Below are positions 6,904 through 50,620 of a stretch of DNA of 64,000 nucleotides, piece after piece. The notes under the pieces are model-generated. The model was not told the DNA's origin and did not search any database. It saw nothing but the letters and a program-made list of their open reading frames with translations. Within the stretch, counting starts at the first letter, position 1. Each line of letters begins with the position of its first letter. This DNA is from Anolis carolinensis (lineage: Eukaryota). The position numbers were made by a program, and so were the translations under genes. The stretch lies in assembly GCF_035594765.1 (NCBI RefSeq), contig NC_085841.1:328609402-328673401 (forward strand). The letters run 5' to 3'.

Positions 6904-6917
6904 TTATTACTACTACA

Positions 6918-8908
6918 GGGTTGTCGTGTGTCTTTCGGGCTGTGTGGCCATGTTCCAGAAGCATTCTCTCCTGACGTTTCGCCCACATCTATGGCAGGCA
7001 TCCTCAGAGGTTGTGAGGTATGGAGAAAACTAAGCAAAGAGGTAAATATATATCTGTGGAAAGTCTAGGGTGAGAGAGGTCAGTGTGAATGTGTGTAGTT
7101 AATCACTTTAATTAGCATTGAAAAGCTTATCTGCTGTCTTCTTCCTGCCTCTGGGGCATCCTTTGTTTAGAGTCGTTAACTGCCCTAGGTTGATTCATGT
7201 CTGAAAAATCCTCTGTTTTTAGAGTATTGCTTTTTATTTACTGTTCTGATTCTTGAGTTTTTTAATACTGGTAGCCAGATTTTGTTCATTTTCATGGTTT
7301 CTTCCTTTCTGTTGAAGTTGTCCACATGCTTGTGGATTTCAATGGCTTCTCTGTGTAGTCTGACATGATAGTTGTTAGAATGGTCCAGCATTTTTGTGTT
7401 CTCAAATAGTATTCTGTGTCCAGGCTGGTTCATCAAATGCTCTGCTATGGCTGATTTCTCTGGTTGAATTAGTCTGCAGTGCCTTTCATGTTCTTTGACT
7501 CTTGTTTGGGCGCTGCGTTTGGTGGTCCCTATGTAGACTTGTCCACAGCTGCATGGTATCCGGTAGACTCCTGCAGAAAAGAGAGAGGATCCCTCTTGTC
7601 CTTCGCTGACCGTAGCATTTGTTGGATTTTCTTCGTGGGTCTGTAGATAGTTTGTAGGTTGTGCTTCTTCATCAGCTTCCCTATGCGGTCAGTAGTTCCC
7701 TTGATGTATGGTAAGAACACCTTTCCTCTGGGTGGATCTTTGTCTTGACTCTCATGGCTTGTTCTTGGCCTTGCAGCTCTTCTGATGTCTGTGGTGGAGT
7801 ATCCATTGGCCTGTAGAGCCCAGTTTAGGTGATTGAGTTCACCTTGGAGGAGGTGAGGTTCGCAGATTCTTTGTGCACGGTCTGTCAGGGCTTTGATTGT
7901 GCTCCTTTTTTGACTTGGGTGATGGTTGGAGTTTTTATGAAGGTATCTATCTGTGTGTGTAGGTTTTCTGTAAACTGTGTGGCCCAATTGTTGATTGGGT
8001 TTGCGGATGACCAGAACATCTAGAAATGGCAGTTTTCCTTCCTTTTCTTTTTCCATGGTGAATTGGATGTTTGGGTGGATGCTGTTAAGATGGTCCAGGA
8101 ACTTGCTGAGTTCTTCCTCTCCATGGCTCCAAATCGTGAAGGTGTCATCTACGTATCTGAACCAAACAGTTGGCTTTTTTGGTGCTGTTTCTAGGACAAG
8201 AGGGATCCTCTCTCTTCTGCAGGAGTCTACCGGATACCATGCAGCTGTGGACAAGTCTACATAGGGACCACCAAACGCAGCGCCCAAACAAGAGTCAAAG
8301 AACATGAAAGGCACTGCAGACTAATTCAACCAGAGAAATCAGCCATAGCAGAGCATTTGATGAACCAGCCTGGACACAGAATACTATTTGAGAACACAAA
8401 AATGCTGGACCATTCTAACAACTATCATGTCAGACTACACAGAGAAGCCATTGAAATCCACAAGCATGTGGACAACTTCAACAGAAAGGAAGAAACCATG
8501 AAAATGAACAAAATCTGGCTACCAGTATTAAAAAACTCAAGAATCAGAACAGTAAATAAAAAGCAATACTCTAAAAACAGAGGATTTTCAGACATGAATC
8601 AACCTAGGGCAGTTAACGACTCTAAACAAAGGATGCCCCAGAGGCAGGAAGAAGACAGCAGATAAGCTTTTCAATGCTAATTAAAGTGATTAACTACACA
8701 CATTCACACTGACCTCTCTCACCCTAGACTTTCCACAGATATATATTTACCTCTTTGCTTAGTTTTCTCCATACCTCACAACCTCTGAGGATGCCTGCCA
8801 TAGATGTGGGCGAAACGTCAGGAGAGAATGCTTCTGGAACATGGCCACACAGCCCGAAAGACACACGACAACCCTGTGATCCTGGCCATGAAAGCCTTCG
8901 ACAACACA
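6918..8908 (-). mobile_element. Young Penelope-like retroelement, 5'-truncated, with inverted terminal repeats
   Basis: RT C-terminus WFRYVDDTF...LPFLDV...VYRKPTHTDRYL on the minus strand and GIY-YIG GVYRIPCSCGQVYIG in the arms. Inverted arms about 6916-7602 and 8193-8876; 13-bp TSD TATTACTACTACA at 6905-6917 and 8909-8921. Confidence 0.93.
8782..8822 (+). ncRNA. Minimal type I hammerhead ribozyme motif in the Penelope terminal repeat
   Basis: cct-CTGAGGA-t-gcctgc-catagat-gtgggc-GAAA-c-GTC-agg: CUGANGA and GAAA cores, helix II, GUC cleavage triplet, and cct/agg helix I. A mirror copy lies on the minus strand at about 6970-7010. Confidence 0.8.
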
Positions 8909-24679: not shown

Positions 24680-27600
24680 ATGTTATCAGATGAGTTAGAG
24701 TCCAAACCAGAGGTCAGTAACTAGTCTCTGCATTGTGTATTTTCTGGAAATCATAATAGTGGCAAATGATGGCTTTCCCAACAATTTACATACCTCACAT
24801 AAATTTTATCGCTTACAGCTATAGGGTTTGTTTTTACATTAAAGACTAAAACTTCTGAATTTATTTTATATTTATAGAGTAAGTATTATTTGAAAGCTCA
24901 TCACTTCTAGATGATACTTAGAATGTGTCTTTAGAAATATCGAGTTGAATGAGACCACCAGGCCCATCCAAACCAACCCACTGCCATGCAATCAAAACAT
25001 TCCTGACAGATGACCATCCAGACGCTGTTTAAAAATTTCCAAAGAAGGAGACTATTCTATTTGAGGCAGCATATTCCATTGCCAAACTGCTCTTGGCAGT
25101 TCTTCCTAATGTTTAGGTAGAATCTCTTTTCCTGTAGTTTGAATCCATTGTTCCATGTCTGTGAGTGTTTTACCTTGTACTAGTAAGATAATTTGACACT
25201 ACTTTAACTCCCATGACTCAATACTATGGAGTCCTTAGAAATGTACAAGTTCTTTAATCTTTTCTCTCAAAGAGTGCTGGGGCCTCACCAAACTACAAAT
25301 CCAAGGATTCCATAGCATTGATCCATAGTGGTTAAAGTGGCATTAAACTGCATTACTTCTACATTGTAGATGCATCCTTAGTCTCTGAAGCACAGAAAAT
25401 GCTTGCTCCCTGCTTAAGATGGCATCATTTCAAGTACCTAAATGTGGTTATCATGTCCCCTCTCCAACCTGCTGCTTTCCAGTTAAACATTCCCAGCTCC
25501 CTAAGCCATTTCCCATAGAACTTGGCTTCCAAAGCTTTGACCATTTGTTGCCTTTCTCTGGTCACATTCCAACTTGAGTGAGAAGGAAGCGCCATGATCT
25601 CAGTGGAGGTTTCTTCTGAGTAAATCTGAATAGGATTCCACTACACTTCAGGATCCATATGCAAAGATGTTTTCAATGGCCATCAGTGAAACATCTGGTG
25701 ATTTCAGTAGCAACTCAAGCTTCTGCCTTGGTTGAGAGAAGATTTGTTTTTCTATATATTGCTAATAAGCCAAGTCTCTGTTTTGCCATTTTTTTGTAGG
25801 AGGAAGAGACATCTAATGATTGTCTTTTACCTGAATATCTTTGCTTTCCTCCTCTCTAGCTGCTGGTTCAGTTCGTTCAAAACACAGCTATTCCACTAGG
25901 AGAGGAACTTGCGGAATCAGGACCTAAAGATCTCACCTGTCTGTCTCTCCTTCCCGTTGCTGAATCCCCAGAATGCAACAGGTTGATATTGCCAGGTAAA
26001 ATCTGAAATCTGATTATTCTAAATATTTGTTTAAGATACTGTAACAGGAAAAGAAAAGAGGAATCTTTAGCTATAGCTGTCTGTTCATAAGTAAGTCCCA
26101 CTGAGTTCAATGAGACATACTCCCAAGTATTGAATGCAACTCATGAAGCTTTGAGTTGAAGGGAGCTTTCTCTTTGTACTATACACCTTTGTGCTCAGAT
26201 CTGGAGTACTCCTATGATAGAAATACAAATATAATAAAAAGGGAGAATTCTGGTTATCAGCAGCCCTTGATTGTTTTATTATTAGTTTCTATATCTTTGA
26301 TACTATATCTTGGAAACATGTGACTTCATTAGGTTGGCTACTGAGACAACAGAATTCTAGACTAGATAAGTCTGTAGTCTGATCAAGCATGGGTTAATTT
26401 TTTATACATGTCAGATTCTTTGCTCTTGATTCATAAATGTTTTTTTTTTCCTGCATTCTCTTCATTAGATGACTCCCCAAGTCACACTAGCACTTCAAAG
26501 GATGTGTCCTCTGCTGCTCTTTTACGCAACCTCCAGGTGACTGTTGGCCCTGATGGTGAAGAGACAAGGGCACAGACGGCACAGAAGCCTCCTGAGCTTC
26601 TCCCAAGTCCTGATACGTCCAGTTTACTGCAAGATCTTCAGCCCAACGACAGCACTTCCTTTATCCTGCTCAATTTAACACGGACAGGTAACAGCCATAT
26701 CAGCATTTAGTTAAAGCGGAAGGGAGGCTTATGTATCACAAATTATTCTGAAAAGCATACTACAGTTTAAAATGCTCCTGAATTTGTAAGAATCAGCAGC
26801 AGGTCTAATAAAGTTACTGTGAAAGTTTCTTGAAATACATATATCCTCCTGTAAACATTGACTTCATGCATGGGTACTGGGCATGTTTTGGTGCCAAGAT
26901 CATGGATTTTGATATGACCCATGGATAAGTTGAGGCAGTTTCTGTGTAGAGGAGAGGGGAAGGTATTAACACAGCCCCAGGGAGCCAGCCATCTCTAGTC
27001 ACCACTGCCACCATTTTCCTACTCTGTTATTATAAAAAGCCAGAGGTGGGATTGATACGTGGGATTGATGCTTCTTTTAAGTTCTTCTGGGACAAAATAA
27101 GCTGTTGTCTTTCACCACTTTGCTTAGAGAAGGAGTTTTTTAAAAAAATAAGAGTTAAGGTACAGTACTTATGTAGACCCATGGGTTAGTTGACCCAGGT
27201 TTTTGCATTGATTTTTTGACTCAGATTTCTTGACGTACACAAAAGGGAGCTCAGTATTGTGGGTCACAGCTGAATTTGATTATCTTAGTGTCTGATGAAA
27301 CTGCTTCCTTCATAGGTCTTGGCTCTCTCTCAGAGCACCTGGTGTTTGTCCAGGATGAAGCAGAAGATTCTGGGAATGACTTGTTCTCTAATAATAGCAC
27401 TGACAGCAGCACTCCATGGTTTTTACGAGTGCAGGAACTCGCCCATGACAGCTTGATTGCTGCCACTCGAGCACAGCTTGCCAAGAATGCCAAAGCAAGC
27501 AATAATGGTAAGATATTAATTTCTGTAATTTAACAAGTTAAATCATATACTCTTTTAGTTAATTATTGGTATTTGTTGAATTACCCAATTTAAAATAAAG

Positions 27601-30600
27601 TTTTAAATTACTTAAGTATGTCTCATTAAATAAATTACTCTAGTATGGCTCATATTAATTAAATTACTAGTTACATCACTATTTAATTAGTATCAGTTAA
27701 ATTGCTTCAGTAGATCTCAAGTCTCATATGTGTTTACAAAACTGTTGTTCTCGAAGATATCATTCTAAGTATGGAGAAAAGGTCAGTTTTATAGAGATGA
27801 CTAACCACAATACTGATTGTGCATCTACATTGTAGAATCAGTGCAGTTTAACTGTTATGGCTCAGTGCTATGGAATCCTGGATTTGTAGTTTGTAGTTGT
27901 GGCAGAGAAGACTAAAACCTTGTAAAACTTCAATCTTCAAGATTCCGTAGCATTGGACCCTGGTAGTTAAAGTGGTGTCAAATTTCATTAATTCTATAGT
28001 GTGGCTGCACCCTAAGAAATATATCAAGTTTATGGGTTTGTTTTATATTAAATGTTTTATATTGTAGCCTCATGTTGCTTTTTTCCAACTCTTTCCAGGT
28101 GAAAATGTTCATGTTTGCTCAGGAGACTCACAGCCGAAAGAGCCCAGTCCCATTCCTCACTTGCCCCGGGTGGAGAAAAAGTTGGCATGCACTGTAGAAG
28201 GCTGTGATAGGACCTTTGTATGGCCAGCCCATTTCAGATATCACTTAAAAACACATAGGTGTGTAGATTTGTTGTGGCTGTGACTTCGCCTGCACTGTGC
28301 ACATTGGATAGATATTTATGTAGTATCTGACTGTGGAATAATCCATTATTTTGGCTGAGCAAACGTTCACTAAAATAAAGGAAATTTAGGTAAACAGCAC
28401 ATTCAAGGCAGCTTTTAATCGTGTTCATAAATACATTCTTTTAGAAGTATGGGAGCTATTTGTGCTTTGTTAACAATATGTTGGAATAAGAATCCTAGTA
28501 TTTTGTTTCGTGTATGCCTAACTCTTTTAAAAAGATGATTAAAATATGAAACAAAAATAGTCTCATAAATAATTTCTTTTTAAGATGCATCCTCTTGGAT
28601 GTTAAAATACTGCTAATTCAGAGATGGGCAACTGTCAGAGGTTGACAGGCTGCACTGAGCCCCTCCATGGGATTTTGGAGGGCAACATCCCCTCCTCACA
28701 ACAGTTTGTATTTTTAAAAAAACACAATAAAACACTTATTTTCTAAATGGCCAAAATGAAGAGACAGTTTTGGAACTGTCTAGGCCATTTTAGACTCAGG
28801 AGACATTCTTTAAAAAATAGGAAATTAACTTGCCAGTTGACTTCCTGTCCTAAAAATAAGCTCTCCTGAACCTAAAATATGGTGATACAACCTAACACTA
28901 TAAGGGACATGGAGACATTTGGACCAAATCTTTCTTAAAAAGCACTTTTGCACTGCCAGTTATACCTTTTCCTGCAGAGCACACTTTCTCCATCTCAACT
29001 TAATGCCAACCATTTCACTTTTCAGTCCATGCCCTTAGTTCTGAAGTAAAAAAAAAAAACCATCACACACGGCTTTGCATTATAGATCTTAGCACAGATT
29101 GCCTATGTCAGATTGTGGATTACTAAATTTGATCCTTGTCTATTAGGAATGATCGTTCATTCACTTGTCCAGCAAAAGGTTGTGGGAAAAGCTTCTATGT
29201 CCTGCAGCGCCTGAAAGTCCACATGAGGACACACAATGGAGAGAAACCATTCATTTGCACTGAACTAGGCTGCGGGAAGCAATTCACAACAGCTGGCAAT
29301 CTGAAGAATCACCTTCGAATTCACACTGGTATGTTGCCCTTTTTTCAGAACTTTGAATTACTACAATATTTAATAATTACTGTATTTTGGGTAGTCAGAT
29401 TGAGAACAGAGCTCTAACTGGATATCCTGCCTCTTCTCTGCCTGTTGTGAAATACTTAATTTTGGGTTAGATAGAATTTGTTCTCCATAACAGTTGAAAC
29501 CAATAGGTCTGCATTTTCTGTTCTCAATCTTATTACTTATCATTCTTATTAACTACAACTTAGCTATACAATACAATGATCAGCATTACCAAAGTGTACA
29601 GCCAAAGGGGTCTGTTAAAGATATGTAGCAATAGCAGTGCATAACTCTGTGCTACAGTGGGTATTTCCATTAAGATCCTTGAAACAAAGACTTTTCTTTT
29701 GGAGGGGAGTGTTTATGCTATTTTAGCTGAACTGTCTACCTAAACATACCAACCCAAAAGGAATTTCAAGGTATTTGCAAAATAAGACAAATACTGGAAA
29801 TAAAATACTGTATTGATTTCAGTGATGACTTGCTATGGTTTAAGACTTCATGTTTCTAAATAGTGTTGCTGTATAAACGATCTATAATTGCAAAATCGTT
29901 TCATTCTTTATAGCCATTCACTATTCCTTGACCTTGGTGTTTCCTGTATGATTTCTCGTTTTCATCCTATGCCAGCTTTCAGCAGCCTTCTGATGTAATT
30001 CTTCCTGCTGTGCTTGTTCTACTGAGCCAATGCCATATGGAGTGTTTATTTCTAACTTTAACAGATTTCAACCAGGTTTTCCTTTGTATCAGCCACTAAA
30101 ATTTTGTCTTTAGTCCAGTTATTTTAAAGAAGTCTCGATTTGAATGAAGATCCAGCTTTCCATGGTGCACTTGTTAAAAGCTTCCAATCTTTTTTCATTA
30201 CTATACAACCTGTCATGAACTGAAAAAGGGAATATTTAAAGTAATAAATTAATAAGTATAAATAAATTTTAAAATAACAAATCTTGGTAACACCTAATTC
30301 CAAAGAAACTGATTCCTGGTTTGGATTCTGTAGTTAACGAACCATAGACTGGCAGTGTTGAGGAGGTTGTATATTGTTTATCAGTGTTGAAGCAAACCGT
30401 AAGAGCACTTATTTTTGATATCAAACAAGCTTGTAGGAGTAGAACTGCATTTGGGAAACTGAAAGGTAAGGTGGAGAGTGAGTCCTCTGTAGCCAAAAGG
30501 GAGGGCTTATTAAACATTTTCACTCGTGACCCCGGGTATACAGTATAGATATCTAAAATAGGTGTAAAAAGACAACATTTATTGATACTGAATCATCAGC

Positions 30601-33600
30601 ACTTGCAAGGCTCCCTAAACAGACAGTTTTTTCTTTTTATGAAGTACAGCTGAAGAACCTTATGCAGAGTCAACTGTAAACATTGCACAGCAGATTCATG
30701 TAAATATCTAAAACAGACACTAGGTTACATTCAGAAAAGTCTTACTCTTGCCAAATTTTTGGGACCCCAACATTGAGCTAAGGGGAACCTGTTTTGGGTT
30801 GAGACCCACAGTTTAAGAAGCAGTGGTCTATGGCATATTCTACTTAAGTGCACTTTTCATTTAAGTTAAGCAGATATCTAATTACAATGTTTTACAATGC
30901 AGGGGAAAAACCTTTCTTATGTGAGGCGCAAGGCTGTGGTCGTTCCTTTGCTGAATACTCCAGCCTTCGGAAACACCTGGTTGTCCATTCAGGTAAGGGA
31001 ACGTCATCCTCTTAACTGAGACCCACATCACACAGAGTGTCTTTCTTGAAGTCAGCATACAAAAGGGTCTTCCAGCACCTTTGAGACTATCTGAAAGAAG
31101 TTGGTAGCATCAGCTTTTATAGACTAAGTCTACTCCATCAGATGCAGGTAATGAAGTGTCTAGAACTGGAGCTTGTGCATACATTCTGATTCTGCTGTTT
31201 CTTTTTCTAATTTTCCTTTGTAGATTTTGTTCAAGGACTTCTGTTTTGAGGTCTGAGATGGAATGCCCAGGAAGATTTAAGTGGTGAAGCGGTCTGCAAC
31301 TATTTTTGTGTATCCCCATTCCTAATATTTCAGAAATAGTAGAATTGGAATACATCTAGAAGTCCCAGTACATTAGCAGTGGGTTGACCAGAGACAGTGG
31401 TTTCCTGGCACACTGTGCGTCTTATAACACTATATAATAACCCTCCTCCTCCTCCTCCTCCTCCTCCTCCCCCTCCTTCTCTTTATTTATACTCTGCCTT
31501 TCTCCCCGTGGGGACTCAAGGCGACTAACAATCCACACTAGACAAGTTTAAAAAGTGCCATACAAAAGTTAAAAACAAATAGTAACAGTGTGGTAAAAAC
31601 AGAATTAAAATAGAGTAAATACACTAAAATGGCCTTTAAAACTCATATCCATATCCTGCTCCTTCCCCAAACCTGCCCCTTACCTTTCCGCAAATTTCTG
31701 CTGGCAGAAGATCTTGACCTGTTAACCCCACAGCCTCATGAGGGCTCTCTTACCATTTTACCATGTCTCCTTTCAGGTTGTCCATCATCTATATGGTCAA
31801 TTCAGCCTGGTAATAGGTAATATATTTTCCCCATCTTTGTCCCACTGTTCTTCATCTCATTCCCATAGGTTTTGGATTTCGATTGCTATTTGTGCACAAC
31901 TTGCTCATTCACAGCTATAAATGTTTGTCCCTATGTATTTCATACATCTGATGAGAAGTAGTCTTAAGCCTACAGAAGCTTATGTAAACAACTTCTTTCT
32001 TTCAGTCTCAAAGGTAATACAAGATCCCTTTCCAAACTGAGACAAATTAACACAGCTTTGACTTTGCAGTCAGTAATATATTCCCTTGATCCTGTGGAAC
32101 AATTACTGCTACTACTTTTTAAAAACGGATTTTTCAAAAAACATCTTGACCTGTCTCCTTTTTTCTTTTTCTAACCTACATCTCAGTCATATCAGAAGAT
32201 GGTGAGATTTCATCTTGCCTGTCCTATACTCTGTAAAACAAAGGCTTCAAATGTATTGGGAGTCCCTTTGGGGAGATAGGACGGGTTATAAATGAAGTAT
32301 TGTTATTAATGGAGGTAGAGACCTTTGACTTCAGATTACTTAAACTTCCTGGCAAAATGTAGCTGTGAATTTCATTATCTTTCCTAGAACTAAGCCTTTT
32401 AATAGGCCCGTGAGGTTGAAATATATCAACTATGTAAATACAGAAAATGAATATTTCAGTTCCTTGTTGAATAGATTTTGTGTCTTGTTTCAGGAGTAAA
32501 GCCACACCAGTGTCAAATCTGTGGGAAGACATTTTCTCAAAGTGGTAGCAGAAACGTGCATATGAAGAAGCATCATTCTAGAATTGGAATGACTAGCAAC
32601 AGACAGCATGAGCAAAGAGGTAGGAATTGAATAGTCCCTGGAGGTAGTGGAAAGGATGGGTCAGTTTAGAGCCGGGGTGGGGAAAGTGCAGGCTCCTCCA
32701 TACTCCCTTAATTGCCCTTTTCTGGGCCTCCAAAGGGCGAATGTTTTGTTCTAGAAGCCTCCAAGAGAGGCAGTTCATATCTTGAATGGGTTGTCAGGTC
32801 TCTGGGTACTATTTAAACATAAAATAATACCAATTTAAAAACCACAATAAATTTGGACTTCTGACTACTGAATTTTGGGGAGTCTGGCTAGCTCCTAGAG
32901 CATATGTGACAAAATCAAAGCCATGGCCCAAATCCAGCTTGCCATTACATTTTAGGTGGCCCTACAGATGCTGGACTTAATTCCTGTATTCCTCATCATT
33001 ATCATGACTAGACCCGAAAGAGAATCTTGCTAAGAAGTACAGAATTGAAAGGATTGTAGAGGTCAACAAATAAAAGCTTTTAAAATAGGAACAAGTGTGT
33101 GTTGTCAAAGGCTTTCATGGCTGGGATCACAGGGTTGTTTGTTTTCCGGGCTGTATTGCCATGTCCCAGAAGTATTCTCTCCTGACATTTTGCCCACATC
33201 TATGGTAGGCATCCTCAGAGGTTGTGAGGACCTCACAACCTCTAGGGGTGCCTGCCATAGATGTGGGCCAAATGTCAGGAGAGAATATTTCTGGAACATA
33301 GCCATACAGCCCAGAAAACATACAACAACCCTGGGAACAAGAGTGTTTGATCATGTAACACAGAAGCTTTCTTTGCTTTCAAAAATTGACCTCTTTTTTA
33401 GCTGTAAATATCTTTAATGAAAATAATCCTATTTAGTCAGAGCTCCCTTATAAAATTCCACCTTTTAGAAGTGACCCTCCTTCAGAATCCAATTTCCATG
33501 TCTCAAAGGGATACTTTTAAGTGAGATCTCAATTCTTCACCTTGTTTAGATTTCTGCGATAGGGAAAACTCCTTTGCTGAAGCAGTGGTGCAGACCACAG

Positions 33601-34663
33601 TAACAGTTCAAATGTCAGAATCTTGTTTTTTTTTTTTAAATCAGAATCACTGATGGGCAGTAGTTTGTTGGAAGAGTCTGAAGTGCACAGCAAGAACCTG
33701 GTGTCAATAAGTTCGCCTCCTAGCCTCGGTGTGGAATCCTTGCACCTGCCAGACACAGAATCAATTATTGGTGTAAAGGAGGGTGAGGAAATATTTGTAT
33801 AATATAAAAGTGATCAATATTGTACCTGGGATTGTTTAAAATGTTTTAGAGTTTTTTTTTATTTTTTCCATAACTTGAGGTTTGAATACTGTAAATAGTT
33901 TAATTCTATTTTAATTGTCACTTTTTGTATCCTTTTTATTCTACCCTTTTATATTCTGACCCCTTTTGAATAATAACAACCTGAAACTGAAGATGGGTGT
34001 GATTCTCTTTTTACAAGCCTGAAATAATTGGAATGTAAACAAATTTACTTCAGTGAACATTTGAAATGGGTTGGTGGAAGAGAAAATCAGATAATTTCTT
34101 AAATTTCCTTGAGAGCTGATACCAGTATCCAGATACTTTTTGAAGAGGTGCGATATTAATTGCTATTATCAGTATACATTGTGTCTGACCTGGAGGTGTT
34201 GGGCCTGGGGAAAAGGTATGCGGGTTTGTTTATGTGTTTGTTTTGTCCTTCCAAACCAGATGTCTTTTATCTTCTGTTTAAAAAGTGGTTATTTGTTTTT
34301 GGGGAAGACATTTTCTGTCTTCCCATTGTATCTTATCTTATCATCAGCAGACTTGACATTTGAGATTGCAGTTCCTTCTGTCATCTATTTCCTCTATGGA
34401 TTAGATATATGAGGAAGTTGGATTGCAGACAGTATGTGTTTCAGTTTTTTTCTGAAGATCGAATATCCTTCGAGTTCCTTGTGAAAAATTTTCTGTGTTT
34501 TTAAATAAAGTATAATTTCTTATTTTGTCTAATAGCAGAGGTTCTTGCTGAAGCAACATCAAATTCTCTTCATGCTGCTCCTGATGTGGTTTTGCCATCT
34601 CATCATTTAATGCCCATGTCAGTATCAAGACACACTTATGGGGTCTCATCTTTGCTACAGTAG
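24680..34663 (+). CDS. ZNF410: Zinc finger protein 410 (five C2H2 fingers), 466 aa
   Basis: Coding exons with GT-AG sites and consistent phases: 24680-24712, 25860-25995, 26469-26687, 27316-27507, 28099-28258, 29147-29328, 30903-30992, 32494-32619, 33645-33782, 34539-34663. Peptides include MLSDELESKPELLVQFVQN, PWFLRVQELAHDSLIAATRAQLAKN and CGKSFYVLQRLKVHMRTHNGEKPF. Confidence 0.96.
31055..32060. mobile_element. Older second Penelope family, inverted pair
   Basis: Minus-strand peptide HLNLPGHSISDLKTEVLEQ resembles the PLE GIY-YIG C-terminal region. Inverted ends ctttgagact / agtctcaaag, with degenerate CTGATGA...GAAAgctta hammerhead cores near 31110-31145 and 31945-31984. Confidence 0.65.
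33097..33333. mobile_element. Head-to-head Penelope terminal-repeat pair forming a hairpin (ZNF410 intron)
   Basis: Arms 33129-33229 and 33231-33333 are inverted about a 1-nt centre at 33230. Flanking GGAACAAG repeats at 33088-33095 and 33334-33341. Confidence 0.85.
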
Positions 34664-40600: not shown

Positions 40601-40838
40601 AAATAACTTAAGAAGCACTTCCCTTGTTGTAGTAACTCATCTCTATTCTGTCCCGAAGCAGGGTATTGTGACCTTTAAGTTACCATAGAAATTAATACTT
40701 TCAATAATATGGGTATAGTGGGCAATTCAGCAAGCAAAGGGAGGGACTCTAGGGATTGTGTCAGCACAGTAGGAGTGCAAAATTATCTAAAGTGCAACAG
40801 ATCCAATTAGGTACTTAGCATGATCACGCATAAATAAC

Positions 40839-41978
40839 TGTTATGATTGAGCCTCATGGCTCTGTTACTGACAGACGTGGGCGTAAGACTCCTCGAGAGT
40901 CAGATACTCTCGAGGAGCGAGAAAGAAAAAGACTGCGAGACATTTTTGCAGCACCATCTGACGAAGAGTCTTTTGAGGGGTTTACGGAGAGAATGGAGGA
41001 GGGGCTGGTTAGCTCGGAGGAGGATGAGATGGATTGGACTCGGGTGAGGGAGGAATTGGGTGCCACTGGCCATGATGGGATAGAAGATGAATGGGGACCT
41101 TCAGGATTAGACCCATGGTCTAGCTGGAGGGATGGGACGGGATCCACAGCTGGAGATGCTGTGGGGCGTAGTCAGAGGTGTTCCAGCTCTGATGAGGAAA
41201 GTGATGAGGAAACGCCCGGGTTAAGGAGGACAGCTGACAGTGATGAGGATTTGTAACTGGCATAAAATGGGGCTTGGGAGCAATTGCAAATTGCGTTGGG
41301 CAAGGTAATCTGGACGAACGCTTGGGATCTGTGTGGGACGCTTTCCTGAAGACTGGTGTGTTTTCGTGTGCTGATACGTAAGTTGTTTTGGAATTCAGGG
41401 TCAGACGGCGGGAGGAATTGTGTGGGCATTTGTTTGTGCAAACCTGTGCTTACTCTTATTAGCTTGACCTTCCGTCGTCTTCTTGACGGACGCCATCTCC
41501 TGCTTTGAAATTCGGACTGAACTGACCACGGCTTGACTTCCCCCTTCTTGGACTTGGAAACTACAAACGTCTGCTTCTGGCTTTGATCTACGGAAAGGAA
41601 CTGGGTCTACTCTACTGCTACAATCCTTGGCTGATCTGTTCGTGCTGGAAATCCTGTCTGCTGTGTGTGTGGGAGCGACGCAAGTTACTCTAAGCACAGT
41701 GTTGGCAGCAGAGAGGAATCTGCTGCCAATTAGTTGCATTCTTTTGTATCTTTTGTTCCTCGGCTTTTGTTTTGTTTATCCCCAGGCTGAAGCAAGCAGT
41801 TTGTTTTTACCCGGATTAAACCCCGGTTTAATCCGGTTTATCTTTTGAACGTTTTTCCTTGTCCCTTTTTGCTCCTAAAGGCTAATACTGCCTGGCCCTT
41901 GTATTTTACGGGCATTTTTGAGTTCTGTAATCCAATAAACTCTGTTATCTTGAATCTTGTGGCGTTCTGTCCTTGACA
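40839..41978 (+). mobile_element. Solo LTR (1140 bp), probably Gypsy-like
   Basis: TG...CA ends, 5-bp TSD ATAAC (40834-40838 and 41979-41983), TATA-like CATAAAA at 41261 and AATAAA at 41934. Confidence 0.88.
40843..41256 (+). CDS. LTR U3-encoded acidic 137-aa ORF with an FxGF (LEDGF IBM/TIM-like) motif
   Basis: Intact ORF filling U3 from 4 nt inside the LTR to just before the TATA-like box. Basic N-terminus, DIFAAPSDEESFEGF, and several SDEE-type acidic clusters. Translation is unproven. Confidence 0.5.
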   Translation: MIEPHGSVTDRRGRKTPRESDTLEERERKRLRDIFAAPSDEESFEGFTERMEEGLVSSEEDEMDWTRVREELGATGHDGIEDEWGPSGLDPWSSWRDGTGSTAGDAVGRSQRCSSSDEESDEETPGLRRTADSDEDL

Positions 41979-42088
41979 ATAACATTATGCTGGCTCCATT
42001 TTTTCCTACTGTAAATATTGCCTAAATCTGATTGATTATATTTGATTAGAGAATAAGCTAGAGATACATGGAATGTCTCAACAGATTC

Positions 42089-45000
42089 CTACTCTAATTC
42101 CAATCTTCTCTGTCCTTCTTGAGACAGTTCCTTTATGATATCAACTTCTGTATCCCTCTGGGACTTCTGGATTCTGTTGATGAAAAACAGTAATTTCAAA
42201 TATTTTCAGAATGTAATGTGCCTCTTGCTAGTAACAAGACTGAAGAAGTAGTTGCAATACTATTTTGGAATTCCTTTCCATTTGGTAAGGATCCCACATA
42301 CATAATTTTCATCATGGTCTCCCAACAAAACTCCCAACAAAATTTGATGACAGTGTGACTCAACTTAGATAATCCAATAAATTTTACAGCCAGGCAGGGA
42401 ATTTCAGTATATAGACTACAAAATAAACCTAAAGTCAGGGCAAGGAAACATTCTATCATGGAGAAACCACCATTTCCCAAGTCTTCACTATAGGCCCAGC
42501 AGGCATTTGAGGGTGGACCTTTTCCTGTCTCAATCCCCCATTTTTAGTTCTAGGCTACTGTAAAGCTGAAATCACATTGGGGGAAATTAGAGACTCAGAC
42601 TCCTACAAATTCAAAACTTCCTAAATCAACCTCTGCTGATGGTATATCTATGCCTACAGAATTTTCCAAAGCAATTTCCTTACCATGGCAAATAATCAAT
42701 TATATCATATCCAGCAACCCCATAGCCAGCTCTGGCTGACTGTCGGATTATATATAACTGATTTTATTTTCAGCATAGATTTATTCTATGCCCTTTATAT
42801 ACCTTTTTGTTGCAGACTTCTCTTTCCTTACTGAGCCAGTGGCTTCTCTTCCTTTGTTTCTTACAAATTCTTCATCCAACCCAAATTGCTGCAAGGTTTC
42901 TTGGAAGAGCCTCTGAGCTCCCTGCCGAGCACCATGCTACCAAATCAAAAGTGACACATTTTAGCAGATCCTCTTCCCTTTGGGAATAATTCAAATTATT
43001 TTTACACTAAGATGGCAAGTAGATATCCATTTTAATATTGGTAGAAATGTGTGCTTTAGACTGTTCATTTGAGGGAATATTTCGAAGGCCATTATATTGA
43101 AACTGATCTACTTTTGACTAAATTGAAAAGTATCCTGTACTGCATTATGCTACCTGTACATTAAGGCCATGTTTACTTTTATATCAGTTATGAGAATCAT
43201 GCAACAATCTAGATATAACTCCCATCCCTCCTTGACAGTAGCTATGCTTTCATGGGTTGAAGGAAGTGCCAGTCAAACATTTCAGGGACTACATGATTCC
43301 CACTCCTGCTTTACAGAGTGTAGTATAGCTAATCTATAACTAAAACAGTCCTTTGTTCTTGATTCCCTCATCAGGTTTTTGCTAGCACTTCTTTTTTATC
43401 ACTCATACAAGAACTGGTTACCTTTGTGACCTGTTCAAATAAATATGGTCGGTTTTTCACTCGCATCTTCATTTCATCTAGTTCTTTTTGATACTCTTTC
43501 AGTCTTTTTTGGTCATTCTGCCTGTAACAAGAGTTTTCCTTACTGACAGAGAAAATAGTTGAAGACTTGCAATTAAACATTAAAAAAACAACAACATAAC
43601 AGTGCTGAAACAGGTTGAGCATCTTTATCTGGAATTCTGAATCCAAAATCCTGGAAAATCTGAAATTGTCCCCATAGGTAATAGTGACATCTTTGCTTCC
43701 TGAAGATTCAGTGTACATACATACAATTTTTGTTTTCATGAATAACATTCTTAAAAATACTGTGTGTCAAAACTTTGGTACATATTACTGTGCTCATGCT
43801 TTTTCCCCTAATCCTGTTCTATTCACTAAGTTCATTTCTTAGTAACCCTTTATTAAATTCCAGTAATGTATTACCTAACCAATTTGAATACTGACCAGTT
43901 CTGTTTCAGCTTTTCTTTGTACGTCTCCTCCAAGCTTTTATGGGGATCCATGGCTTTTGCTCGGGAATTCACAGTCTTATGCATAGCTTGACATTTCTTC
44001 CTCTGCAGCTCAGCCCAGCGAGCTCCTTCATTCTCCTTGTATTTTTTATCCTCTTGGAGGAATCTGTTGAGAAGGACATAGTAAGCAAAACATCAGTATT
44101 TCAAAATGAAATCATCCAAAACCAGAAATCAAACATGAGCCAGTCAAGTTTTCCAGGTAAAACAAAGTATGTGAACAATGTGAAGCTGTATTAGTCCTCT
44201 GCTAGAAAAAGAAATGTGGCTAATGGTGACACCTATTTCATAAGATGATCAAAAATTGCTGAAAGGTGAGAAAGTTTATCAAAACTGACCAGAATCTTTC
44301 CTCCTGGTCATATTTCTAATAATTTCTCCACATTATCTGAATACTGAGTTTTTAACCTAGAAGAGTTTGGGCCATTTTATAAAATATAAGCTCAGTTAAC
44401 ATGACTTGAACACAGTTATTACCCACAACGAATTAAAGAGATAATCACAGATATTATTGCTCACTTAATAGCAGATTTCCTCTTTCTTGCTGCATCCGTT
44501 ATATAGACTGGAAGTGTATTGGAGGAAAGGGAGGAAAGACAAGTCAAAGAACGGCTTCTTTGCAGCGGTGCCTTGGAAGGCTGGTGTACTTCCTGAAAGC
44601 AAGAATATTTTGTACTGATTTTAAAAGCTTTTATATCCCTTTAGCTGTATGTTCATTCTCTCGTGTACATGTATGTGTGAGTCACTCCATGCACTGAACA
44701 CCTATTAAGACATATGCAGTTGGGCTAGCAAAGCAGTTTTTCCTGCTGCTTTTACTAACCCAACTAAAGCCTCCAGTGGCTAGCTATTTTAGCTAAGGGA
44801 TTCAATGAGCTGTACTCCCAAAGAGTAAGTTCTGGCAAATACCTTCCATTGGAGGCAGTGGAAAGGGAAAACATTTGAAAATAGCCACCCTTTCCATCTT
44901 CTCTTCCTGTCAATGTTGAGCTGGTAAAGCTTATGAAATGGCATCTTATCTACCTCCTCTTTATCTCCATTTTAGGATTTTCTGTCAATAGTGGAAGTAC

Positions 45001-48000
45001 AATTGGCCCTCCGCATTGCAGATTTGATTGTCCATGGATTTGATTAATATGCTATCTCTAGGAATCTCTAGATCTTAAAACACAATTCTGTTGAATGTGT
45101 TGTCAAAGGCTTTTGTTGACAATTCTGTTGTCAACTTTCAGCAGAAGTTGACAGCAGAACTATTCTGAAAGACTTACAGATTCCTCGAGAGGTTAAAAAA
45201 CAGCATATTTTAATTTGTGTTGTTTTTTTTTTCCTTTTTGTGGGGGTCCTATGTCCCTAACCCTAAAAAATGTGGAGGACCCACTGTATGTCTGTTATCT
45301 CCTTCATTTTTAAAAGTTATTCCAATAGAAAGCAATTATATTTAAATATAAGTTCACTGCTTGTTGTTCTTGTTCCACAACATTTTTTTCAAATAGAAAG
45401 CAACTATTTTTTAAAGAAGTGGCACTACAGGTTTTTCTTGTTCCACAACAATTTTCTCCCCAATAAGGACTAACACTGCAATGTAAACATGAAGTAGGCT
45501 AAAGGAGTAGGTTAAAACTATTGCTTTTACCATCATCTCCTGATGTTTGCAACGGAGATTAGATGTTCTCAACTGGAATGGTTTATTATGAGTTGCTTCT
45601 TTCATTTCTCGTTTGCTTTGTGCATCTCGTTGGAAAGCCCAGTAAAGTCCTTCAAAGTCAGGCACTGATTTGTTAATTCTTGGTTTAAAACTGAAGTTCT
45701 CCTGTAGAAAGCTAAGCTTTTGTTCCCTGTTTTTGGTGGCAGTTTGGGATCCTTTCTTTCTTTGTCTATTGTCCAACTCAATAGGCGCCCAGGAGGTTTC
45801 CAGTAAATCCTTAGATCTCATCTGAATACGGATTTTTCTTAGAAGTTCAGTTTCTGAGAATTAAAAGCAAAACCAATAAACATTCAGCATTGGAAAAAGG
45901 TATGCAAATCTAGCTGATGTTGCAGTAAAAAAGCTGGGAACTCTAAAATCATGTAATTTGGAATCTCCTATACCAAATGCAAAACTATGTAGAATATATA
46001 TATTATTTAGAACAGTTCAGTAATTCTCATTGATTTCCTGTTTGAGTTCAGAAACTGTGCATTCTAGCCATGCCTTTGAACGAAGCAAGAGCAATCAAGT
46101 CTGAGGGTGCATCTACACTATAGAATTAATGTGGTTGATTTATTTATTTATTTTTACAGCTTTTATTTTCTGCCCTTCTCACCCCGACGGGGACTCAGGG
46201 CGGATCACAGAATACATATATGACAAACATTCAATGTTGATTATAACAATGACAAGACAGACAACAGATAGAGTATATAAGCTTTCCCATCTTTTGGCAT
46301 GTTTGGAGTCTGTGCTTGATTCCGGCCACCAGGGGGTGCTGTCACCCATCTCTCTGCCAAAGAGCTTTCTTTTTCGTAAATTTCCTTCTTTTTCTGATCA
46401 AAATGCCGAGCCTAAATAAATACCTGCCCGCTTTTAATGCGGTTCCTATTTATCAACTCAAATTTGTTTTCGAACTGCTAGGTTGGCGGAAGCTAGTCTT
46501 AAAGTCAGGAGCTCACCCTGACCCGTGCTTTGAACTGTCAGCCTTCTGGTTGGCAAGATTATTGCAGCTTGGTGATTAACCTGCTGTGCTAAAGCCCAGG
46601 CCGACAACCACTTTAACTATGGCCCCATCTGCACTGCCCTATAATGCAGTCTGAAACTACAGTATATGGCCAGTATAGACACATATAATACAGTTCAATA
46701 CAGTTAAACTGCATTATATGATTCTATACTGATCATATAATGTAGTTTCAGACTGCATTATAAGGTGGTGTAGATTGGGCCTATCATGGCTAAGTGCTAT
46801 GGAATCATGGGAGCTGTAGTTACACAAGGTTTTTAATTTCTCTGACAAAGAGTGGTGGTACCTCATCAAACTACAAACTGCAGAATTCCATAGCATTGAG
46901 CCAGTGCAGTTAAAGTAGTGTCAAACTGCATTAATTCAACAATGTAGATGCACCTTTAGTTAAAATCCATACTTAAAGAGGCTTGCTGCCACCAGAAACA
47001 TTGACCTCACAGGCAGAAAATAACAAGGGTCTACAGAGAAAATCTGCAGAAGCTTGACAAAACATTTTTAAAGAAACCCTTACATTTTATCTACTCTTCC
47101 CTATTGAGGAAGAAGAATTTCTGGCTACTAAGCCTAAATCACCCATACTGGAAGTTCCAGTCAAATTGCAAAACCCCCAGGGACAGCCTTCCCAGCAAAA
47201 GTAAACTTCTTCACAGAGGAAGAGTACATCTTGACAGCTGCCATAATATGACATGACTCTTTTCCTGGAATACACACTCAACCCTTTACCTTTGAGTTTA
47301 TCCCCAAACACTGGTTCAAAAGTGGACTTGGGGATCCTCTTCTTGATTTTTGGTGCTGTTTTGTTAGTAGAACCAATGATGTCCAGAACCTTTTGCCGGA
47401 TGGCCTCCTTTCTCTTTTTTTCTTTTTCTTCAAAGCTGAAGGGTTTTTGCATAGAAAAAAGCAGTTCCCTTCTTTTCTGCATCTCCACCTGTCTACGGAT
47501 TTCATTCTTTTCCATGATTTCCTGGTAGAGGGGCAAATAGACATGCGCAGGGACAGGTTGGGCCCTGAACTGTTTCTGGCATTCCACTTCTTCTTGGCTT
47601 TGTCTTTTCTGTTCAGTTGTCTCAAGTTCAAGGAACACGTGCGATTTTAACAACAGAGACTTTTTGCGAGCTTCTCGCAATGTCATTTTGAAGGGCTGAG
47701 GAATCGTGATAGAAGACATCCAAGCAGCTGAGGCACTCTTTGATTTGGAAAAAGATAGCGAAGGTGAATAATGATTGCACAGATCTTCTGAGTTATTTAA
47801 TGTGAGGTCAGTCAAAGAGCTGACCCTTCTTATGTTCCCGGACCTAAGGATAAGGTACAAAGGGCACAAAGGCAAAGAGAAAGATTATATCTGAGAATGC
47901 TTTCCTCTGAATATATGAAACAATTATGTACATTTTTAGCAGACACTTGCATATTATGGAAGAGTTTCAAGCCTACTGCATTCTTTTATTGGCTGGAAAG

Positions 48001-50620
48001 TCTTCCTTAGTATGACTTAGTAGAATAACAGCACTCAAGTGTATTGTAAAAAACTAGAGTTACCTCCCCCCAAGCTTTTTCTTCCCTTCCTTTCTTCCCT
48101 CCCTCCCTCCTCTTACTTATCTGGGCTTTGACTCTGCCCATCACTCCCTTTGTAGCTCTTTTCTTGCTCCCTCCCTCCTCATTCTACACAAATTACCTTT
48201 CTTTCCCAGTGACATCACAGAGGGCCACTTCACCTAGCAACAGCCTATCCTTGACCTAGCAACAGTCAATCTTTCCTTATCAACAGCCTTTGTGGGACAA
48301 ACACACCGACAAATAAACATACATGCTTTGACTTGTATATGTAGATAGATAGATAGACAGATAGATATGTAGGTGTAGATATAGATCAGGCATGGGCAAA
48401 CTCTGGCCCTCCATGTGTTTTGGACTTCAACATCCACAATTCCTAACTGGCTGTGAGGAATTGTGGGAGTTAAAGCCCAATACATCTGAAGGGCCAAAGT
48501 TTGCCCATGCCTGATATAGATAGATCTAGGAGAAATCTCTCCAATACAACTTGTTAATACTATGGAAAAAATAAGGCACTGTGATACATTTTACCTTAAA
48601 GCTTCACTGTACTTTGTTGGCAACATCAGTCTTCCATTGTCCTGGAAAAAGTCTTCCAGTTCCTTGTCTTCCTTGGATGGTTTGAGGATGTTCTCCAGTT
48701 TTAGCTGGTACATAAGACCTAACTCTAGCAAATACTGTCTGTTTTTTTCTTTAAGGATCTGAAGCGAGTCATAAAAGCCCTGGTCAGAATGTGAGGAAGC
48801 AGCTTCATCCGACAGGAGCAAATCCAGCAACTCCCCTCTATTGGGTAGACTGGCATGGCCGGCCTGCCCAATGTGTGACTGAGAATCTGACTGTCCTTCC
48901 ATCGAAAAAACCTGGGACAATGAGAACAACAAGAAAAAGACATTGAACACTGAAAAGCATTTCAAAAATCATCTTCATTATCATTATTGTTATTATGATA
49001 ATTATATTTATTCATATCTCACTTTTTTTTCTGTGACAAGAGACACAGAGTGGCTAGGGGGAAAAAGAAACATTGATTTCATATACACCACTTTCATGAG
49101 CTTCAGTTTTTCAACAAGCCAATCAGACTAGTAAATATGCTATGCCGTTTAATACTGTGATTTCTGTCCCTGCATAGCTACTTGCAAATGAAACCCTAAC
49201 TTTCAAATAAATGTGCTTCTAATGGTTTCCATGAAAGCAAATATTATTTGTGATGTAGTGTAATTTTAGATTGTTCCTACTGCTTATTTTTCTATCTTTT
49301 TTTTGCTGTTGCTTTCAGGAGTTCTACTTCAGAAAATGATGTCTCAAGATATCTAAAACTATCATCAGTGTATCAATACTATTAATAATAATAATCCAGA
49401 ACCTTGGATAAGCGAGTCTTGGATAAGTGAGACTCTACTGTAGTAAAATATTGTAATTTAATGCTTATATTGTGCTATGCCAATAATACATTCTGTGTTC
49501 ATTTGATTTGTAAGCTGCTCTGAGTCCCCTTCGGGGTGAGAAGAGCGGGATATAAATGTAATAAATAAATAAATAATAAATAAAATTATTAAAATATTTT
49601 AGTCACCACCTAAATAAATAAATAAATAAATACAGGGGAAATATTTTTTAAAAACAATAAAATAATGAGTTGGTATGAGTTTTCCAGACTGTCTCGGCAT
49701 GTTCCAGAAGCCTTCCCTCCTGACGTTTCACCCACATCTATGCCAGGCATCCTCAGAGGTTGTGAGGTCTGTTGGAAACTAGGCAAGTGGGGTTTATATA
49801 TCTATGAAATGACCAGGGTGGGAGAAAAAAAACACTTGTCTGTTTGATGCAAGTGTGAATGTTGCAATTGGGCAGCTTGATTAGCATTGAATAGCCTTGC
49901 AGCTTCAAAGCCTGGCTGTTTCCTGTCTGAGGGAATCTTTTATTGGGGGGTGTTAGCTGGCCCTGATTGTTTCCTGTCTGGAACAAAAAAATGATAATAA
50001 ATTATTAGTACAGTAGAGTCTCACTTATCCAACATAAACAGGCCGGCAGAATGTTGGATAAGCGAATATGTTGGATAATGAGGCATTACGGAAAAGCCTA
50101 TTAAACATCAAATTAGGTTATGATTTCACAAATGAAGCACCAAAACATCATGTTAGACAACAAATTTGGCAGGAAAAGTAGTTCAATACACAGTAATGCT
50201 ATGTAATGCTTACTGTAATGCACAGTAATGCTTACTGTATTTATGAATTTAGCACCAAAATATCACGATATATTGAAAACATTGACTACAAAAATGCGTT
50301 GGATAATCCAGAACATTGGATAAGCGAGACTCTACTGTATTTCAGTTATTACTACAGTATTTGCATTATATGTGTACTTTGCTTTATTATGCCAACCCCT
50401 GGTTTTATTTGGCAAGGAATAGTGCCATGTCCTTTCGTCAGAAATACAGACATATAGCAGCTGATATTCCTTGGCGGTCTCCCACCCAAGTATAAACCAG
50501 TGCTGACCCTGCTTAGCTTCAAAGATCAGCGAGGTCTACTGCTTTGGGATATTTAGGTCATTATCTGCACCGTACCCGTCCCATCTGCTTGGGCTCCGCT
50601 CCAGCCGCCGAGACCGTCAT
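42089..50620 (-). CDS. FAM161B: FAM161 centrosomal/ciliary protein B, 617 aa
   Basis: Exons in transcript order: 50620-50576, 48911-48595, 47843-47290, 45853-45531, 44592-44465, 44063-43896, 43521-43422, 42936-42803, 42173-42089. All are GT-AG with consistent phase. Motifs ITIPQPFKMTLREARKK, QFRAQPVPAHVYLPLYQEIM, KAMDPHKSLEE, RPYLFEQV. First and last exons are less certain. Confidence 0.92.
46138..46602 (-). mobile_element. SINE with Sauria-like head and L2-type tail, inserted in a Harbinger-type MITE
   Basis: Reverse strand has gccaacctagcagttcgaaaac and a tccgccctgagtcccc...(TAAA)n tail. Confidence 0.6.
48387..48513. mobile_element. hAT MITE (related copy about 3319-3492)
   Basis: TIR CAGGCATGGGCAAACT / AGTTTGCCCATGCCTG with 8-bp TSD ATATAGAT. 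Confidence 0.82.
50380..50540 (-). mobile_element. 5S rRNA-derived SINE (second copy about 38550-38750, + strand)
   Basis: Reverse complement tgatctttgaagctaagcagggtcagcactggtttatacttgggtgggagaccgccaaggaata follows the 5S rRNA A/IE/C box region. Confidence 0.75.

Follow-up and report, generated by a model that had tools for sequence, protein, structure and literature searches.

Tethering by LEDGF/HRP2 is known for lentiviral integrases, and the cellular partners of these readers bind through a short linear motif. According to a review on TFIIS N-terminal domains (TNDs), a TND-interacting motif (TIM) consists of a helix and an acidic linker of 8-16 residues, CK2 raises the affinity, several proteins have two or three TIMs and no known cellular partner of LEDGF/HRP2 is described as able to do without the sequence FxGF (PMC9987994). 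The section of that review on viral mimicry names lentiviral integrases only. A fly study proposes LEDGF tethering of long terminal repeat (LTR) elements and states that supporting data are lacking (PMC10018349). Here, a solo LTR from a young family of Tf1/sushi-type Ty3/Gypsy retrotransposons is described, located in a 64,000-nt stretch of the Anolis carolinensis genome (NC_085841.1, 328,609,402 to 328,673,401; this whole stretch is called the window). Its U3 region encodes the last 137 amino acids (aa) of an integrase, and these contain a conserved JPO2-like TIM. With a probability of roughly 60%, this motif binds the integrase-binding domain (IBD) of LEDGF/HRP2 and tethers integration to H3K36-methylated, transcribed chromatin. 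A literature search, with subscription papers, supplements and Repbase-type records largely outside its coverage, returned no report of an FxGF motif in a retrotransposon integrase, and the accessible parts of PMC8149907, PMC9976928, PMC6877644, PMC3670739 and bioRxiv 10.1101/2021.07.27.453949 do not describe such a feature.

The U3 reading frame as the end of Pol

An earlier note on this DNA had pointed out an intact 137-aa open reading frame (ORF) ahead of a CATAAAA box, within a solo LTR bounded by target-site duplications (TSDs). The coordinates and the ATAAC on both sides bear this out. The start of the ORF indeed lies 4 nt after the TG, but its ATG is part of the LTR terminus TGTTATG and is missing at that position in older sister LTRs.

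The best 40 genomic matches to the LTR, from 2148 candidates, are 99-100% identical and many are paired about 5.18 kb apart. In ten full-length elements (6.3 kb), drawn from the copies closest to the window LTR, the two LTRs differ at 0-4 sites and the 5-bp TSD is exact in nine cases, indicating a very young family. The element encodes Gag with a zinc knuckle, followed in the -1 frame by Pol with protease (PR), reverse transcriptase (RT), RNase H (RH), integrase (IN) and a Tf2-like SH3 domain. The gag/pol overlap (L036:2170-2235) has a -1 frameshift signal, namely a slippery GGGAAAA and then a stable hairpin (z -3.6). UniRef holds entries near-identical to the encoded proteins, labelled Anolis carolinensis. 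Contigs from four runs, guessed to be RNA, cover the element, such contigs being uninformative on expression or splicing.

The Pol frame measures 1214 aa from stop to stop, crosses the polypurine tract (PPT) and terminates at the stop codon of the window ORF. It is uninterrupted in seven of the ten full-length copies, with two broken upstream and one having a stop in the tail. Subfamily A2 likewise shows a 1214-aa frame at 15 of 150 scored places, the remainder being mostly solo or 5' LTRs. Since Pol reads in frame over the PPT into the 3' LTR, the integrase ends in the 137 aa of this ORF, which form its C-terminal tail at the position where relatives have a chromodomain. Only 32 aa separate the SH3 domain from the LTR, and most relatives have PF00385 at the corresponding position after SH3. 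A Pfam scan of the 137-aa ORF matched no family, and the chromodomain PF00385 gave no Pfam match in Pol at E<=1. Thus, of the features that mark Tf1/sushi elements, the gag gene followed by PR-RT-RH-IN, the LTRs and the TSD are all present, and the chromodomain after the SH3/GPY-F region is absent. By descent, the element is a chromovirus that lost its chromodomain.

The primer-binding site (PBS) of the full-length copies is complementary to 11 nt of the LTR, 26 nt past the CATAAAA box and 37 nt past the stop codon. This complementarity points to self-priming, which is expected for Tf1/sushi elements according to PMC6317226. When the PBS was predicted from the R start of older LTR families, three matches were found versus none in the control, all three followed by gag. 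As the RNA would start downstream of the ORF, the promoter of the solo LTR itself should not express it. Of the two products suggested in the earlier note, an integrase extension reading into the 3' LTR is what the full-length copies encode. A stand-alone nef- or sag-like protein of the solo LTR found no support, because the frame is fused to Pol with no stop between and the presumed RNA start lies 3' of it.

Entry of Pol into U3 is also seen in chromodomain-bearing reptile chromoviruses (L154 minus strand, L159-L188; P0037, P0043, P0004, P0005). In the chromodomain-bearing anole family, the junction is as in the motif family and was seen in DNA; the other relatives were judged from protein. 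Two of these tails end in an RRSAR stretch that is reminiscent of the nucleosome-binding core of HMGN proteins.

Likeness to LEDGF/HRP2 partners and selection on the tail

Within the ORF (40843-41256, 137 aa plus stop), the motif reads DIFAAPSDEESFEGF at 40939-40983. Its linker (residues 36-43) is acidic and, at eight residues, equal in length to that of JPO2 M1; Ser39 fits S-x-x-E and is a putative CK2 site by sequence. FxGF follows at residues 44-47 and is kept across subfamilies. A single-sequence fold of low confidence (mean predicted local distance difference test, pLDDT, 46) places a predicted helix at residues 23-35, with Phe35 as its last residue. As far as sequence can tell, the tail satisfies each feature of a TIM.

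The best of three PDB matches for the ORF is 6emo, a fusion of the LEDGF IBD and JPO2 M1, in which DIFNAPSDDEEFVGF aligns to residues 33-47; this match (E 1.5) is not significant alone. The CDCA7L/JPO2 motif quoted in the earlier note was therefore correct. The alignment with CDCA7L suggested there was also made: the M1 motif of the lizard's own CDCA7L (locus L254) is identical to the tail motif at 10/16 residues, with an alignment score of 53 that none of 3000 residue shuffles equalled (maximum 33). The TIM pattern arose by chance in 55 of 200,000 shuffles. These shuffles concern a motif chosen after being seen, and the data on selection and recurrence are the stronger evidence.

Between subfamilies A and A2, the tail has a ratio of nonsynonymous to synonymous substitution (dN/dS) of 0.21, with changes at 23/91 synonymous versus 20/320 nonsynonymous sites (Fisher p 1.7e-6). 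Codons 26-50, spanning the motif, show 0.05 (p 9e-5) and the integrase 0.03. These values, obtained by Nei-Gojobori, compare one A copy with four A2 copies, and the tests are not independent. The tail aligns without indels between A and A2, and the non-coding LTR aligns in 26-28 blocks. The tail is thus under purifying selection. The 137-aa frame is kept in 28/30 LTRs and the motif likewise in 28/30, in a sample picked by the first LTR bases, independent of the motif; young age alone might explain much of this retention, for which the older LTRs give stronger evidence. Both ORF retention and a dN/dS below 1, proposed beforehand as checks, were thus obtained.

In older LTRs picked by their R start, one to three motifs are present in 27 of 30, giving 46 in total versus none in 3000 codon shuffles. 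A motif pattern barring the family's own Gly codon gave 560 genomic matches, versus 8 in the control. Where older-family copies have internal sequence, their pieces of Gag and Pol are 31-74% identical to those of family A. The integrase-LTR junction of the older multi-motif families was not found: the PPT pattern occurred at chance level (26 versus 36 in the control) and three PBS-bearing older copies are decayed and lack the junction. In these families, Pol would presumably read through into U3 as well. Two apparent older-family junctions were rejected, being other Gypsy families nested within LTRs. Three loci (L120, L151, L153) are older motif-family LTRs or internal regions broken by insertions, two of these being Gypsy elements of other families. 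One older LTR (G000:C1:132553577-132554200) has five tandem motif-bearing units with 150-nt spacing.

As candidate host partners, the same genome encodes PSIP1 and, at a second locus with a LEDGF domain, probably HDGFL2. Another locus (L071, G000:C2:143718346-143718648) is an intronless, 5'-truncated PSIP1 copy with a stop inside the IBD, i.e. a processed pseudogene. When residues 400-495 of lizard LEDGF were folded together with residues 18-62 of the tail, the predicted complex scored 0.39 versus 0.01 for the best control, which lends weak support; the runs shared at least 48% of contacts, with a partner pLDDT of 51 or more. In the benchmark, 51/78 solved and 2/108 mismatched pairs reach the mark. 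The tail quite probably binds the LEDGF/HRP2 IBD.

Recurrence, origin and genomic setting of the motif

Two homolog searches supplied 109 integrase tails, of which only P0002 and P0003, of the anole lineage, and the Podarcis-labelled P0008 and P0048 match the motif pattern. A set of 120 tails among the best 150 cluster representatives added P0259, P0394 and, weakly, P0075. In P0008, P0048, P0259 and P0394, the motifs follow a chromodomain without the aromatic cage residues present in relatives. In this second, lacertid lineage (P0008, P0048, P0259, P0394, P0067, P0075; Podarcis-labelled where a name is given), a degenerate chromodomain precedes a single FxGF-type acidic motif or a pair of them, which apparently lie upstream of the PPT.

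In a Pol tree, the anole family falls inside a reptile chromovirus clade (support 96/95). In an RT-RH-IN tree, it forms a group (96/98) with a Gekko-labelled element and with a Podarcis one that has a chromodomain. The first tree left the motif carriers unresolved, and a single clade of all carriers was rejected (p-AU 0.005, LG+G4). Two gains of the motif are therefore likelier than one, an old gain plus losses being possible.

Of a recent capture of the motif from CDCA7L or CDCA7, no trace was found in DNA. A blastn comparison with 90 kb around both CDCA7L and CDCA7 gave no similarity beyond chance, the motif DNA is identical to CDCA7L at 26/48 nt and the serine codon of the motif is TCT versus AGT. 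Most likely, the motif arose by mimicry, more than once in lizard chromoviruses; an old capture of a host motif is possible.

The features of the window LTR are collected in Table 1. In sister LTRs, the equivalent of its CATAAAA box is a TAAAA-containing one.

Table 1. Coordinates of the solo LTR and its features, as positions in the window
Feature	Position	Strand	Remarks
Solo LTR, 1140 bp, TG...CA	40839..41978	+	Young Tf1/sushi-type Ty3/Gypsy family
5' TSD, ATAAC	40834..40838	n/a	
3' TSD, ATAAC	41979..41983	n/a	
U3 reading frame	40843..41256	+	C-terminal 137 aa of Pol/integrase in full-length elements
Basic stretch RRGRKT	40873..40890	+	Possible nuclear import signal, from sequence
Predicted helix, tail residues 23-35	40909..40947	+	Terminal anchor Phe35; single-sequence model, local pLDDT ~64-77
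TIM / IBD-binding motif, residues 32-47	40936..40983	+	Phe35, 8-residue acidic linker with CK2-type Ser39, FxGF
TATA-like CATAAAA box	41261..41267	+	Directly 3' of stop codon; TAAAA-containing box at equivalent position in sister LTRs
Putative R start, 11 nt	41293..41303	+	Complementary to PBS of full-length copies (self-priming)
AATAAA	41934..41939	+	Close to LTR end

The window copy, a single case, is flanked by two convergent genes, 26408-33802 (+) and 42781-48902 (-), whose 3' ends face it. From their translations, we take these to be ZNF410- and FAM161B-like. The solo LTR lies about 800 bp beyond the last FAM161B-like coding exon seen. Elsewhere in the window, frames for RT/RNase H and a tyrosine recombinase at 60565-63879 (-) mark, by eye, a DIRS-like element. 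At 6915-8877, perfect inverted arms of about 670 bp enclose an RT fragment; this is a Penelope-like element or a local inversion.

Proposed targeting and comparison with known systems

The proposed mechanism would run as follows. The tail would be made only within Gag-Pol, by -1 frameshifting on full-length RNA and not from solo LTRs, and would be left by the protease on the mature integrase. CK2 would phosphorylate it, and the tail would bind a LEDGF/HRP2 reader. This tether on H3K36-methylated chromatin would bias the choice of target, in place of the chromodomain. A broader version, to which we give somewhat less than even odds, is that lizard chromoviruses repeatedly, at least twice, swapped a heterochromatin-reading chromodomain for one to three LEDGF/HRP2-type motifs and thereby redirected integration, away from silent chromatin and into the bodies of transcribed genes.

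Several points weigh against tethering. The score band at or below 0.60, where the predicted complex falls, holds only 5/78 solved complexes and all four passing mismatches, and the score may reflect memory of the solved JPO2 complex. The binding put forward in the earlier note thus has weak support from the model scores (0.39 against 0.01), maybe through likeness to that complex. In many older copies, the helix anchor is Leu instead of Phe. The tail outside the motif is constrained too (dN/dS 0.19), so that the motif is not the only function of the tail. As for insertion sites, comparing the upstream flanks of 30 insertions of the motif family with those of 30 insertions of the chromodomain family gave no difference in GC content (p 0.32), CpG observed/expected ratio (p 0.14) or repeat cover (p 0.99), these measures being crude proxies and the two samples coming from separate stretches of contig C1. 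Along C1 and C2, copies are scattered nearly in proportion to length (89/252 insertions on about 37% of the bases), with no sign of strong regional targeting. An apparent excess of the motif family on small contigs, taken from score-ranked lists, was dropped, the lists possibly covering the contigs unevenly.

The alternative that survives best, though we consider it unlikely, is binding of the tail to LEDGF/HRP2, or else to a different TND protein such as IWS1, TFIIS or elongin A, that serves general access to chromatin, nuclear retention or the stability of the integrase and leaves the sites of insertion unchanged. All motif and selection data are compatible with it, as are the similar flanks and the even spread over C1 and C2. 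However, the tail occupies the exact site of chromovirus targeting modules, and the motif accompanies chromodomain loss or decay in two lineages. Furthermore, the share of insertions in C1:1-144.7 Mb differs between the motif family (15/252) and the chromodomain family (100/875, p 0.013), a difference whose direction is uninterpretable without gene annotation.

It is rather improbable that the tail is a generic acidic disordered extension, such as a histone- or DNA-mimic spacer, with an incidental likeness to FxGF. Acidic residues make up 39/137 of the ORF, selection spans the whole tail, other reptile chromoviruses enter U3 with acidic tails lacking FxGF and the PDB match is a poor one. Yet the spacing and residues fit CDCA7L M1, the minimum of dN/dS lies over the motif, and the motif is kept and duplicated in diverged subfamilies and recurs in a separate lineage.

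Finally, a small nef/sag-like protein made additionally from spliced or read-through RNA as a decoy for LEDGF would suit the in-frame ATG that opens the U3 frame in subfamilies A and A2, and the host gene model XP_062830654.1, which ends in such a tail and indicates that neighbour read-through can be annotated, but is very improbable given the fusion to Pol, an ATG that belongs to the LTR terminus, where older families lack it, and a transcription start presumed to lie 37 nt 3' of the stop codon. In that gene model (P0266), an upstream frame, by eye like the end of a long interspersed nuclear element (LINE) reverse transcriptase, runs into a diverged tail copy; it is probably an annotation of nested repeats.

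If tethering of integration through LEDGF/HRP2 is correct, the chromodomain swap would have given retrotransposons, via linear-motif mimicry, their own way to the lentiviral cofactor. To the lentiviral integrases, this case adds a recently active vertebrate retrotransposon with a selected LEDGF-type motif in the place of a chromodomain, and the chromodomain-bearing relative of similar youth in the same genome provides a natural control. The use of H3K36 readers by retrotransposons, and how targeting modules get swapped, are thereby testable. Reptile U3 regions can moreover contain integrase coding sequence under selection.

Compared to cellular TIMs (CDCA7L/JPO2 M1 in 6emo, IWS1, MLL1 and fly JIL-1), the anole motif has the same Phe-ending helix, 8-residue acidic linker with a CK2-type serine, and FxGF. 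JPO2 and IWS1 have serial motifs according to PMC9987994, as do the older sister families. Unlike the cellular TIMs, the anole motif is located on a retrotransposon integrase, is encoded by an LTR and is known here from sequence. Lentiviral tethering by LEDGF/p75 involves the same host domain and the same predicted outcome. However, PMC10854676 describes a structurally prearranged LEDGF site in HIV integrase, versus an unstructured motif in cellular partners, and the anole module, part of a Metaviridae element, resembles the host motifs and is linear.

With the Tf1/sushi vertebrate chromoviruses, the family shares domain order, 5-bp TSD, probable self-priming and a tree position among reptile chromoviruses, and differs from them in lacking the chromodomain. 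A short C-terminal integrase segment engaging a host chromatin factor is also reported for Ty5 with Sir4 and Ty1 with Pol III. The same holds for MLV integrase and BET proteins. These three systems differ from the anole family in host factor, element class and host. The closest architecture is that of plant CRM group A, in which, according to PMC3059260, a CR motif replaces the chromodomain and the coding region enters the 3' LTR. CRM elements are centromeric and primed by tRNA-Met, with a partner left unidentified in that paper, whereas the anole family apparently primes itself and has a module that corresponds to a host motif already known.
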